A stretch of DNA of 64,000 bases from NCBI GenBank assembly GCA_000004695.1, contig CM000150.2, positions 512,001-576,000 of the forward strand, written 5' to 3'. Shown here one piece after another: positions 8,751-14,205 of the stretch. A program made the translations under genes and the position numbers. Every line of letters begins with the position of its first letter. Position 1 is the stretch's first letter. This DNA is from Dictyostelium discoideum. Taxonomy: Eukaryota. Below the pieces are notes generated by a model, which had not been told where the DNA came from, ran no database searches, and worked only from the letters and a program-made list of their open reading frames with translations.

Positions 8751-8971
8751 TTAATATCCGTACAAACCACTACCACCAATTCTATTGGAACTATCTTGAT
8801 TTTCATTATTACGACTGTTATTATTATTGGTATTGGTATTAATACTAGTAATATCTTTATTTTTATTTTTATTTCTATTATACTTGTCTTTGTTTTTATT
8901 ATTATTATTATTTTTATTAATATTATTATTATTTTTATTATTATTAGTAGTAGTAGTTGTTGTTGTTGTAG

Positions 8972-9003
<32 letters not shown>

Positions 9004-10397
9004 GTATTATTAGTATTATTTATTCTATTATTATGTTTTTTACTATCTTCTATATAATTTTCATTAATTTTCTTATTAATTAAAGTAAAATCTAAATTTT
9101 CTTGTTGTTGTTGTTGAGATTGTGTTAATAACTCTCTAAAGTATGGTTTAAGGAAACTAAGCATTGAAGAAAAGAATTTTATACATTCACCATTTGAACC
9201 ATCAGGACGTAAAAAGAAAGGAGAAAAAAAAGTACATTTGAAAACCTCTTTTTGATCAACCCATTCTAAAAACAATTGATCAGTATGTTTCATAGAGGTA
9301 CGATCAACCGATTTAAATAAATCAGGTATATTTGAATCAAATGGTATTGGTGCACAAAATAAAACATACTTTGAATTTGGTATCCAAAATTTTTGAGTTT
9401 TTTCCGATTGAAATAGTTCTCTATACTCTTGAAGTGAATTTTCAAAGATGAAACCAGTCTCTTCATTGAATTCTCTGGTGGCGGTATCTATTGCAATCTC
9501 ACCATTTTCAATCTTTCCACCAAATGGTAAGAAAACTTCATTGGTAAGCGATGAATTTGGATTCTTTTTTCTCTTTTCAGTTCTATCTTCACATCCCATT
9601 AAAAATTTGATTTTACCTTGATCAATTGAAAATAATAAAACACCAGCTGCTTTATAATTTTTATCAACTTCATCTGGTACTATAGTAAATGATGAATTTT
9701 TTGAAAAGATACCTTGAGTTTTATTTTCTTTTTGTTGTGGTTGTTGTTGTTCATTTTGTAGTTGTTCATGTTGTAGTTGTTCATGTTGTAGTTGTTCGTG
9801 TTGTCCACTGCTATAATTTCTTTGTTGTTGTCTATATGATGAAGATGATGAAGATGATGATGAAGATGAAGATTTATAACTATTTACATAATTTTTTTGT
9901 TCATTACCATAATAATTTGCTGATCGATTATTTTGTCTACTCTCTGAATAATAGTCTCTGCTATTGTCATCATAATCCTTTGTGCTATTATAACTTGATC
10001 TTTGTTGTTGTTGTGTAGAATAATTTCTATCTTGGTCATATCCTCTGTTGTTATTATTACCATAATAATCATCTCTATAATTTTGGTAGTGTCTGCTTTG
10101 ACTGTTATGGTCAAATCTAACTTGGCCACTATTGTAGTTATCATTGTAACTGTTGTTATTGTAATTGTCGTATCTATTGTTATTATTACTATTATTATTA
10201 TTATAGTTATTATTATAGTTATTATTATTATTATTATAGTTATTATTATTATTATAATCTCTATTATAATCTCTATTATTGAAGCTATTACGATCCCCCA
10301 TTGTTGAATATTTATTAAAATTTAGAAGGAAAGGTTTGGTATTTGAAATTGAGTTTTTCAATTGAATAGTTGATAATTGAATTCTAGAAGGGATCAT
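8751..10397 (-). CDS. Nudix hydrolase-domain protein with a roughly 230-aa Asn/Gln/Tyr/Ser-rich (prion-like) N-terminal region, 548 aa.
   Basis: Canonical Nudix box G-x5-E-x7-REUxEExGU is present as GGKIENGEIAIDTATREFNEETGF. Real ATG (minus strand) at 10397. Low-complexity N-terminus includes (QHEQL)x3. Confidence 0.7.
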
Positions 10398-11163: not shown

Positions 11164-11493
11164 ATGAATAAGATTTCATTTGAAATGGTTGATTTAAGAG
11201 AATCATACGACTATGAATTATTGAAAAGGTTTTATAATGAATTAATGATTCCAAATTTTCCAGATGAAAATGAATTAGAACCTTTAGAAAGTTGGGTTGA
11301 AATGTTTGGAAATTTAAATGAAAATAATAATAATAATAATAATAACAATTTAAACTTTTTTAACAATGACAATAACCAAGAAACTATTAATATAAATTTT
11401 GAAAATAATTTATTTTTTGGATCAAATGGTGCTGATGGTGCTGATATAATTGAATATCAAGAAGAAGAAGAACAACAACAACAACAAAAACAA

Positions 11494-11526
<33 letters not shown>

Positions 11527-13381
11527 CTCGATAAAAAAAATAATGAAGATGATGAAGAAAATATTGAATTTCATATAGTTTTATCAATTTGTTCAGAAAA
11601 AGATAGAATTGAAGGACAATCTAATATATTGGGTGGTATTGTATTTGAATATTATCCATCAATAAATTGTGGTTGTATAACTTATATATTGGTTAATGAT
11701 AATTATCGTGGACTTGGGATAGCGAGTAAATTATTAAAAGAATCAAATAATAGATTCAACGATATCGCTAATCGATTTGGACATCTTTCTGGATGTAATG
11801 CAATATTCTTAGAGACAAATTCCGCAGAGAGGGTCAAACCAGAGAATGACGTAATGGATCCATCTAAACGTCATTCAATATTCCATAAAATGGGTATCAG
11901 GTTACTAGATTTCGATTACATTCAACCACCATTATCAAATGATAGTAATAAATGTAAAGATTTATTATTACTATGTTTATTAACTCAAAATATACCAAAA
12001 CAACAAAAATTGAAAATAAATAATAATAATAATAATAATAATAATTCAATTGATAGATATTATTATTTACCAAGTTTATTATTGGAGAGTTTTATTAAAG
12101 TGTTTTGGAAATCATGTTATTCTAGAATCACCCCTAAAATCAATTGGAAAAAAGATGTTGATTATCAAAGAATGGTAGATCAATTAAAGAGAAGAGAAAT
12201 AATACCGTTATTAGATTTACCTTGGAATAGACCTTGGACATTGGTTGACTTAAGAGATAGTTTCAATTCAAATAGATCATTAATCACTAAATTTTATAAT
12301 CAAATTTTAGTACCAAATTTTAAAGGTCATCATGAATTAGAATCACTTGAATCTTGGTTTAAAATGTTACCATTAATAGATAATAATAGCAATACCAATA
12401 ATAGCAATTCTAATGCTAATAATTATAATAATGATTTCTTTCATTTATTAGTTGCATTAAGATATCTAAATGATGATATTGATCATAATCAAGAACCAAT
12501 CATTTGTGGTGGTATTGCATTTGAATATCATCCAAAATCAAATTGTGCATTAATTACTTACTTTTTAATTGGTGGTGGTGAAAATAATCGTTCTGAAATG
12601 ATGGCAAAAGCATTACTTCAAAGATCACTTGAAATCATTGAACAAAATGCAATCGATTGTGGTAATTTAGCTGGTTGTAATGCAATATTTATTGAAAATA
12701 ATAAAAATAATCATAATAATCAAAATAATCAAAATAATAATAATAATACAAAAGAATATTTAAATCAAGATGAAATCATTGAAATATCATATAATTCAGA
12801 ATTTTTAGAGAAATTAGGTTTTATGAAATTAGATTTTAATTATGTTCAACCACCATTATCATTTGAAAAAAGTTCAAGTAATTCTTTAAATTTATTAGTT
12901 TTATTAACTTCGAGAATACCACAAACTATTGATTTAAATTTAATTGAAAATGAAAATGAAAATAATAATATTAATATTAATAATAATAATTATTTACCAA
13001 ATTCATTAATTATTAAATTTATTCAAACATTTTGGGAAAATACAATTAAAAGAAATGAAATTATAAATTTAAATTTATATGAAAATGATTTAAATTTTAA
13101 TATTATGATGGATAGTTTAAAAAGGAAATCTAAAATCCAATTATTAAAATCATCATTAAATTCAAGTTGGGATAATAATTTCACATTAATTGATTTAGCA
13201 GTTGATTTCCATCAAGATTTATTCGACCAATTTTATAATTCATTACCATTTAATAATGAAAATCAAAATCAAAATAATAATAATTATTTAAATATTGAAC
13301 CTAAATCAATATTACAAAAATCCTTATTAAAGAAATCAAATTTTCAAGAAGATATTCATATTTTATTATTAGTTTCATATG

Positions 13382-13450
<69 letters not shown>

Positions 13451-14205
13451 TTTGCCCAACTATATATGGTTCAATTATTTTCTCATATTTTCCAATAAGT
13501 AATTGTGGTTTAATTTCAAATATTTTCATTAAAAGACCACCACCAAGTGAAAATATTAATAATAATAATGAGCATTTTACAAGTTTATATGGTTATTCAA
13601 TTAAAAATAAAAATTATGATATTGGTATTGAATTATTAAATGATTCTATTGGTATTATAAATAGAATATCAACTTCAAAAACTCATATATCCGGTCCGAA
13701 TGCTATATTTTTAGAATGTTCAACAATTACAAATAACTATAGTAGTAGTAATAATAGTAATAATAGTAATAATGATGATAATAGTATAGTTAATAATATA
13801 AAGAAATTTAATGAAAATGAAAATGAAGGTAATTTCATTCAAATTCCATTTAGTAATGAAATTAAAAATCAAGGTTGGTTAATATTAGATTTAAAATATT
13901 ATCAACCACCTAGAAACTCATTAAAATATATTCAAAGTAATGAAAATTTGGAAATATTAGAACAACCACCTTCATTATTATGCGTTTTAAATTGTTTACA
14001 ATTTCCTCACGATATTTCATTACCATCACCATCATTATATATCCCAAAAGATTTATTTAAAAAATTCTTAGCTTCATATTGGACTTCAATTTTCTCAAGA
14101 AATCAAATTTCAATTCAACAATATTCAACAAATAAAAAAAATAATACAAATATTAAATTAAATCAACAATTTAATGAAAAAGATAAAATTTTATTATTAA
14201 ATTAA
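11164..14205 (+). CDS. 1013-aa protein built from three tandem roughly 300-aa GNAT-like (acyl-CoA N-acyltransferase-like) modules. Only module 1 retains a recognisable acetyl-CoA motif (R-x-x-G-x-A).
   Basis: Internal repeats start near aa 1, 360 and 690. Each has an N-terminal 'DLR(D/E)S..(F/L)Y', a Cys-containing core 'C(G/A)xITY', 'GCNAIF(L/I)E' (degraded to 'GPNAIFLE' in module 3) and 'YxQPP'. Module 1 reads YRGLGIASKLL. Single ORF with ATG at 11164. Confidence 0.65.

Follow-up and report, generated by a model that had tools for sequence, protein, structure and literature searches.

Enzymes that carry more than one GNAT unit in a single polypeptide include MshD (mycothiol synthase), Legionella VipF, clavulanate ORF14/CBG (2WPW/2WPX), GlmA, N-myristoyltransferase (NMT), HisAT/NAT16, and Eis. 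In these tandem GNATs, two lobes of ~150 residues are merged into a single compact double-GNAT fold, whose active site lies between them; usually only one of the two domains is active (PMC10936415, PMC12219266), and the reason why the inactive lobe is retained has been described as unresolved (PMC10936415). The gene described here lies at positions 11164–14205 of a 64,000-nucleotide stretch of Dictyostelium discoideum DNA (contig CM000150.2; this whole stretch is called the window below) and encodes a protein that, like the tandem GNATs, has more than one GNAT unit per chain, with the canonical signatures in one unit only, module 1 (M1). The product belongs, with three modules, to a large and uncharacterised GNAT family; judging from sequence comparison, we consider it likely that M1 is the working enzyme and that modules 2 and 3 (M2 and M3) are ancient, selected pseudo-enzyme partners.

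Unlike the tandem GNATs, the window protein has three units (one to five in the family as a whole), each comprising about 270 ordered residues, that is, a GNAT domain with an extension of about 80 residues; the units are joined by conserved linkers and also exist as standalone proteins, and the degenerate modules of the family have separately conserved identities. The standalone single-module members argue that the module is self-sufficient. The PDB sequence and profile searches and NCBIfam revealed no sequence relationship to the named tandem-GNAT families, and membership in NAT16/HisAT or KAT14 was discarded as unsupported, with no sequence or fold match to either. The closest single-domain relatives in fold are the putative acetyltransferase 3EY5 of B. 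thetaiotaomicron, NAA50 (NAT5)/NAA60/NAA30, the streptothricin/nourseothricin acetyltransferases, and GCN5. The design extends the known tandem-GNAT theme and is an architectural variant, not a new kind of system. Its features, with module boundaries taken from a module hidden Markov model (HMM; residues 1–352, 353–663, and 664/668–1013), are the following.

11164–14205, + strand: complete three-GNAT-module gene including the stop codon (open reading frame list, orthologue termini)
11164–12219, + strand: M1, residues 1–352, canonical, predicted catalytic GNAT core with C-terminal extension
11311–11565, + strand: low-complexity Asn/Gln/Glu insert in the α2–β2 loop of M1, residues 50–134, missing or different in orthologues
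11704–11724, + strand: motif A of M1, acetyl-CoA pyrophosphate loop YRGLGIA, residues 181–187 (R-x-x-G-x-A)
11812–11874, + strand: canonical-module signature ETNSAERV...DVMDPSKRH, residues 217–237, β5 to α4 loop
11980–12219, + strand: family-specific C-terminal extension of M1, residues 273–352, β-β-α-α-β, ending in IPLLDL
12220–13152, + strand: M2, residues 353–663, degenerate GNAT module, predicted non-catalytic
12586–12606, + strand: degenerate motif A of M2, NRSEMMA, residues 475–481 (R-[SA]-E-R-M-A in orthologues)
13153–14202, + strand: M3, residues 664–1013, most diverged GNAT module, predicted non-catalytic
13606–13626, + strand: degenerate motif A of M3, NKNYDIG, residues 815–821

The gene is one uninterrupted, single-exon open reading frame (ORF) of 3042 nt on the + strand, encoding 1013 residues and closing with a double stop (TAA TAA), in DNA of about 20% G+C with many poly-Asn runs, as is typical of dictyostelids. 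Both of its termini agree with those of the three-module orthologues P0001, P0005, P0008, P0009, P0015, and P0017, which include proteins of Dictyostelium purpureum (P0001, 46% identity), Cavenderia fasciculata, Polysphondylium violaceum, and Heterostelium album; the three-module architecture is found in six other dictyostelid species, and inter-module linkers such as IPLLDLPWNRPW are conserved. Within the 64-kb window no further copy of the module was found, and a collection of 15 billion proteins contained no exact match to the protein. A first-pass annotation, made from the DNA letters alone, had proposed three tandem GNAT-like modules in this chain, and the internal repeat is evident at two levels of sensitivity. 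In BLASTP with the SEG filter, M1 matches M2 with E = 6e-24 (35% identity over 237 residues) and M3 with E = 2e-8, and M2 matches M3 with E = 1.5e-8; in hhalign, with profiles built from seven dictyostelid orthologues, the corresponding values are E = 3e-64 (probability 100%, 281 columns) for M1–M2, E = 8e-32 (probability 99.9%) for M1–M3, and E = 6e-38 (probability 99.9%, over essentially the full module) for M2–M3. Four motifs recur in the three modules, namely DLR/DLA..FY (residues 9–24 in M1, 361–378 in M2, and 676–691 in M3), NCGCITY (residue 168), NCALITY (460), and NCGLISN (780), then GCNAIFLE (210), GCNAIFIE (504), and GPNAIFLE (844), and finally LDFDYIQPP (248), LDFNYVQPP (556), and LDLKYYQPP (908). 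Their order is the same throughout, as had been described, whereas the motifs themselves are not uniform: M3 has GPNAIF and not GCNAIF, which leaves the supposedly conserved Cys pair incomplete, and ISN in place of ITY. The boundary between M2 and M3, earlier set at residue 690, is placed at about residues 664–668. The loop YRGLGIA (residues 181–187) occurs only in M1, the homologous positions being occupied by NRSEMMA in M2 and NKNYDIG in M3. Poly-Asn/Gln inserts occupy the same two module loops, α2–β2 and β5–α4, and are located at 11311–11565 in M1, about 12700–12760 in M2, and about 13370–13450 and 13720–13800 in M3.

Database models detect the GNAT relationship of M1 only: PF00583 matches it with 22.5–24.2 bits against a cutoff of 20.7, with no GNAT match in M2 and M3, and across an alignment of 21 modules, exactly 3 of them canonical, the Pfam GNAT models recognise 3. 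In a PDB profile search, motif A of M1 aligns with motif A of NAA30, GCN5, and other GNATs, and the profile of the canonical modules gives only weak motif-A matches to single-domain GNATs in the PDB, with E of at least 0.03; phmmer with the whole protein returned only poly-Asn noise from the PDB, and NCBIfam contained no match for the window protein or for one standalone member. The AlphaFold2 model of M1, built from an alignment of 17 canonical modules, has a mean predicted local distance difference test score (pLDDT) of 83.6 and exceeds 90 outside the low-complexity insert, within which the score is <50 at residues 56–98 and <60 over about residues 120–130, the poly-Gln part being modelled as a long helix (residues 99–125). 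The elements of this model follow the order β1-α1-α2-β2-β3-β4-α3-β5-α4-β6-β7 and are succeeded by a β-β-α-α-β unit (residues ~273–352). Foldseek searches of the PDB with the M1 model returned GNATs only, led by nourseothricin acetyltransferase (5c82, E = 2e-6) and followed by OrfE, RimI, NAA30, and GCN5; since the solved structures align over at most about 174 residues, the C-terminal part of about 80 residues is regarded as family-specific. The model of M3 (pLDDT 79.1, predicted template modelling score 0.83) also finds GNATs in all 50 matches listed, the best being Tetrahymena GCN5 (1m1d; probability 1.0, E = 1.8e-3, template modelling score 0.56 on the target), and at 71% of the HMM-aligned positions M3 and M1 have the same predicted secondary structure, a share that drops to 28–39% when the register is shifted. 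As modelled, therefore, M1 and M3 adopt the GNAT fold, while M2 is assigned as a GNAT module through its homology to M1. Neither a non-GNAT fold nor segments failing to match, the two outcomes that the first-pass annotation had named as fatal to its proposal, was encountered, M3 and M1 having been compared through the register of their secondary structure, and the module-by-module structure search that it had recommended, carried out for M1 and M3, led to GNATs alone among the matches listed. It had, however, equated each module with a GNAT domain, whereas each is a GNAT core plus the family-specific C-terminal extension of ~80 residues.

To compare cofactor sites, 86 modules were excised from 25 proteins and aligned to the module HMM, and motif A was scored as canonical when the loop conformed to R/Q-x-x-G-x-[GAS]. 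In the three-module proteins, 7 of 8 first modules have canonical motif A, as against none of the 8 second and 8 third modules, which accords with the earlier proposal that only the first module is competent. In the window protein, the respective positions read R182-G-L-G185-I-A187 in M1, R-S-E-M-M-A in M2, and K-N-Y-D-I-G in M3. Canonical motif A is accompanied by ETNSAxKV and DVMDPxxRH in the β5–α4 region, both missing from degenerate modules, and this signature presumably forms part of the active or substrate site. Twelve residues are invariant in all 22 canonical modules (E162, Y174, R182, G183, E217, N219, D229, P233, R236, R246, Y252, and K263). Equivalents of E162, Y174, and R182 are retained in M2, which loses G183, G185, D229, P233, R236, and K263, with G183 replaced by S/A and G185 by R/M/N/H in its orthologues; M3 additionally loses E162 (Ser in 6/7), Y174 (to Asn), and R182, and has Thr for G206 in 7/7 orthologues. 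D229, P233, and R236 are gone from M2 and almost wholly from M3, N219 is mostly gone, and E217 is kept in both. Residues common to all three module types (F23, Y24, N168, L190, G210, F215, E217, G244, Y252, P255, P303, W315, and L349) look structural. The residue pattern of M2 and M3 is the signature of fold-preserving pseudo-enzyme domains, in line with their earlier description as internally duplicated pseudo-enzyme modules, and from the sequences we infer an active M1 next to an inactive M2 and M3.

The degenerate modules are not recent casualties of decay. In a neighbour-joining tree of modules, M3 joins module 4 of the four-module relatives (bootstrap 93/100), and M2 joins modules 2 and 3 of these proteins (bootstrap 88); the placement of M1, together with the first modules of four-module proteins, standalone proteins, and oxidase fusions, is poorly resolved (bootstrap 29–45). 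Compared pairwise, the seven dictyostelid orthologues have a mean identity of 0.67 in M1, 0.57 in M2, and 0.39 in M3. The loop that replaces motif A in M2, R-[SAG]-E-R-M-A-R-A-L-I (residues 475–489, window 12586–12630), is itself conserved, being shared by dictyostelid M2 and module 2 of the four-module proteins (P0001, P0005, P0008, P0009, P0015, and P0010–P0016), which suggests that the former CoA pyrophosphate site may have been selected for a new role. M2 and M3 are hence orthologous to degenerate modules of the four-module relatives and are old, selected pseudo-enzyme modules, and the degenerate modules appear from these alignments to be under purifying selection. Because M2 and M3 group with their four-module counterparts and the M2 loop is conserved, the division of labour between modules predates the split of the lineages.

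The family to which the protein belongs is large and is found in protists and in some bacteria. A profile search, run exhaustively, yielded 1828 representatives (50%-identity clusters) with E ≤ 1e-3, of which 973 have E ≤ 1e-10 and 138 have E ≤ 1e-30, and a word-indexed search with an alignment of standalone members found 8 proteins. Module numbers, counted in 192 family proteins and affected by fragments in a few cases, are one in 139, two in 28, three in 12, four in 7, and five in 6. Many relatives are standalone proteins of ~250 residues that comprise the whole module, including the extension, with canonical signatures; one of these is from the rhizarian Leptophrys vorax. Contigs on which relatives lie are eukaryotic, and the neighbouring genes encode Roco kinase, cyclin, and MFS proteins; bacterial members occur in Luteolibacter, KSB1, and Phycisphaerales metagenome-assembled genomes. 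A scan of bacterial genomes with P0170 gave no match. In bacteria, the module is fused to, or directly followed by, a conserved domain of ~480 residues (loci L004 1250–3463, L005 4977–7133, and L006 1984–4167), a partner also seen with P0049, P0106, P0128, P0139, P0150, and P0164; this domain has no relative in Pfam, NCBIfam, or the PDB sequences, apart from a faint HEAT-repeat-like match (E = 0.13).

Multi-module relatives usually have one canonical module. The five-module dictyostelid paralogues have canonical motif A in module 4 (5/5) and in none of the others (0/5 each), whereas both modules of two-module proteins are canonical (3/3 each), so that not every chain is limited to a single canonical module. 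The five-module paralogue (1467–1709 residues, only module 4 canonical, among P0002–P0007) is found in species including Acytostelium subglobosum, Polysphondylium violaceum, and Dictyostelium citrinum; its modules 1–4 cluster together, which points to separate duplications, and its module 5 clusters with module 2 of the two-module proteins. P0025 (1980 residues) is another five-module protein, with long inserts, and P0032 (1056 residues) has an N-terminal PH domain (PF00169, E = 2e-9) before two modules. Literature searches found no paper on the family, on fusions of GNAT with polyamine oxidase (PAO), or on a multi-GNAT protein of Dictyostelium.

Leads to the location and substrate come from the C-termini and fusion partners of relatives. 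A strict peroxisomal targeting signal type 1 (PTS1), [SAC][KRH][LM], ends 26 of 168 members as against 0.45 expected by chance, and five more end in -PKL; PTS1-like ends (-SKL, -AKL, -PKL) are carried by P0005, P0008–P0012, P0014, P0016, P0021–P0024, and P0041. Six of the seven four-module proteins end in -AKL, -SKL, -PKL, or -VKL (three being strict PTS1; P0018 is without), and among the three-module orthologues P0005 ends in -AKL and P0008 and P0009 in -PKL. The ancestral multi-module protein would have carried PTS1. In the window protein and in its D. purpureum orthologue the chain stops directly behind ...LLL[ND], with no PTS1-like signal, from which a loss of peroxisomal targeting in the lineage of the window protein follows; the protein itself is probably not peroxisomal.

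A single canonical-type module is fused to a flavin amine oxidase (PF01593) in 10 of the 192 members (P0023, P0024, P0038, P0041, P0043, P0054, P0083, P0088, P0098, and P0159; locus L003 3001–5418), 7 of which have PTS1-like ends. The closest solved relatives of the oxidase half of P0041 are LSD1 (2e-52), spermine oxidase SMOX (1e-46), LSD2, maize PAO (3e-41), and PAOX (2e-33). Clade IV PAOs with a PTS1 are described from protists, amoebozoans among them (PMC7576179), in a paper that makes no mention of GNAT–PAO fusions; with PTS1 present and no room for SWIRM or tower domains in P0041, the oxidase half of the fusion looks like this peroxisomal PAO clade of protists. In both activities and in compartment, the polyamine pair SSAT (SAT1) and peroxisomal PAOX corresponds to the fused relatives ending in -SKL/-AKL, and the presence of GNAT and PAO in one peroxisomal chain, mirroring the SSAT and PAOX steps, leads to the hypothesis that polyamine-like amines are acetylated by the canonical modules. 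An amine, for example a polyamine, is put forward as the substrate only tentatively, and neither the sequence nor the fold of M1 was found to be closer to SSAT/SpeG than to other GNATs. A wider scenario, which we regard as speculative and rather unlikely, is that of a hitherto unrecognised, ancestrally peroxisomal amine (polyamine) N-acetyltransferase system of protists, in which acetylation and flavin oxidation were sometimes combined in one chain; amoebozoans would have built, through tandem duplication of the catalytic module, covalent pseudo-oligomers of 2–5 modules whose dead modules had a conserved role of their own, for example the ERMARAL loop of M2 plugging the former CoA site or re-using it for regulation or the capture of substrate, and the three-module enzyme of D. 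discoideum would have moved out of the peroxisome by the loss of PTS1.

In the explanation that we favour, M1 would function as the working enzyme through its retained acetyl-CoA pyrophosphate loop (R-G-x-G-x-A) and invariant canonical residues, whereas M2 and M3 would be ancient pseudo-enzyme copies that kept the fold and lost both the cofactor loop and the β5–α4 active-site loop; selection would retain them as non-catalytic partners of M1, and, if the inactive lobe of double-GNAT enzymes is a guide, they probably form a built-in oligomer or a scaffold that binds substrate. Several observations weigh against this explanation or the substrate hypothesis attached to it. In four-module relatives the loop of the first module is frequently relaxed (R-G-L-Q-I-G) and is canonical in only 1 of 7, so that motif A is no absolute criterion. 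The fold matches of M3 are statistically weak (best E = 1.8e-3) and come from a predicted model, and the tree is a neighbour-joining tree on simple distances in which the fast-evolving M3 and fourth modules could attract each other. As for the substrate, the window protein is without PTS1 (window 14194–14205), the oxidase-fused relatives are diverged and without the ETNSA/DVMDP signature, and the best PDB match of the P0041 oxidase half is LSD1. Finally, a missing motif A is no proof of lost CoA binding, since the inactive lobes of MshD and VipF bind acetyl-CoA (PMC10936415).

This last point is the basis of an alternative that we regard as possible, if unlikely, and that differs from the favoured explanation only in cofactor binding: M2 and/or M3 may bind CoA or acyl-CoA non-productively and serve as allosteric or regulatory cofactor sensors, as has been put forward for the inactive lobes of these two characterised tandem GNATs. 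The retention in M2 of the E162, Y174, and R182 equivalents and the strong conservation of its altered loop, R-[SA]-E-R-M-A-R-A-L, fit such a role, but in every M2 orthologue larger residues (S/A and R/M/N) stand in place of the two loop glycines, R182, G183, and G185 are gone from M3, and the Glu introduced into the M2 loop could equally block the pyrophosphate site. It is improbable that M1, M2, and M3 are each active in acyl transfer and differ in their substrates or acyl donors, M2 and M3 using a non-canonical cofactor loop. Some genuine GNATs do deviate from Q/R-x-x-G-x-G/A, and the first modules of four-module proteins keep the other canonical signatures despite their relaxed loop; M2 and M3, however, lose not only the loop but also D229, P233, R236, and K263, all invariant in 22/22 canonical modules, M3 further loses E162 and Y174, the Pfam GNAT models miss both, and most multi-module relatives keep a single canonical module.

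The suggestion in the first-pass annotation of a triple reader of acetyl-lysine or substrate, here taken as modules that bind acetyl-lysine or another ligand without any transferase activity, is highly improbable: conserved pseudo-GNAT modules must bind something, which is an indirect argument, whereas the cofactor loop of M1 is complete, its invariant polar residues are common to standalone members of ~250 residues that look like ordinary enzymes, and the fold-search matches include no GNAT-fold acetyl-lysine reader. Its other suggestion, a thiol-dependent acyltransferase forming a Cys acyl-intermediate through the NCG and GCN cysteines, was rejected and retains hardly any likelihood, because no Cys is conserved across the canonical or standalone members. 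These cysteines are common in family modules and flank β4 and β5, yet P0017 has NFG and GIN in M1, the four-module first modules have NVG, NAG, or NSG, the oxidase fusions are without GCN, the standalone P0061 is without both motifs, and the cysteines are equally kept in degenerate modules, which fits a structural role. That three adjacent paralogous genes were misassembled or read as one ORF, or that the similarity is due to chance or low complexity, has nothing but the AT-rich, poly-Asn context to recommend it and was dismissed as next to impossible, given an ORF of 3042 nt uninterrupted in a genome of roughly 20% GC, the conserved linkers, the architecture shared with six other species, and similarities that lie outside low-complexity runs with the SEG filter on. 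The gene should preferably be annotated as a GNAT family member in which one module is canonical and two are degenerate, and not as three acetyltransferase domains. Its divergent upstream neighbour (8751–10397, − strand), with which it has an intergenic region of ~766 bp in common, encodes a low-complexity-rich protein of 548 residues with a NUDIX hydrolase domain (PF00293, E = 7e-7).

What emerges is a large, unannotated GNAT family of about 1800 representatives at 50% identity, defined by a specific C-terminal extension and a frequent PTS1, whose two recurrent fusion partners, the PAO-like oxidase and the bacterial domain of ~480 residues, are concrete leads to the substrate. Distant lineages share the types of degenerate module as traceable orthologues, and the family forms a natural series of one to five modules derived from one self-sufficient unit, which makes the retention of dead GNAT lobes experimentally approachable.

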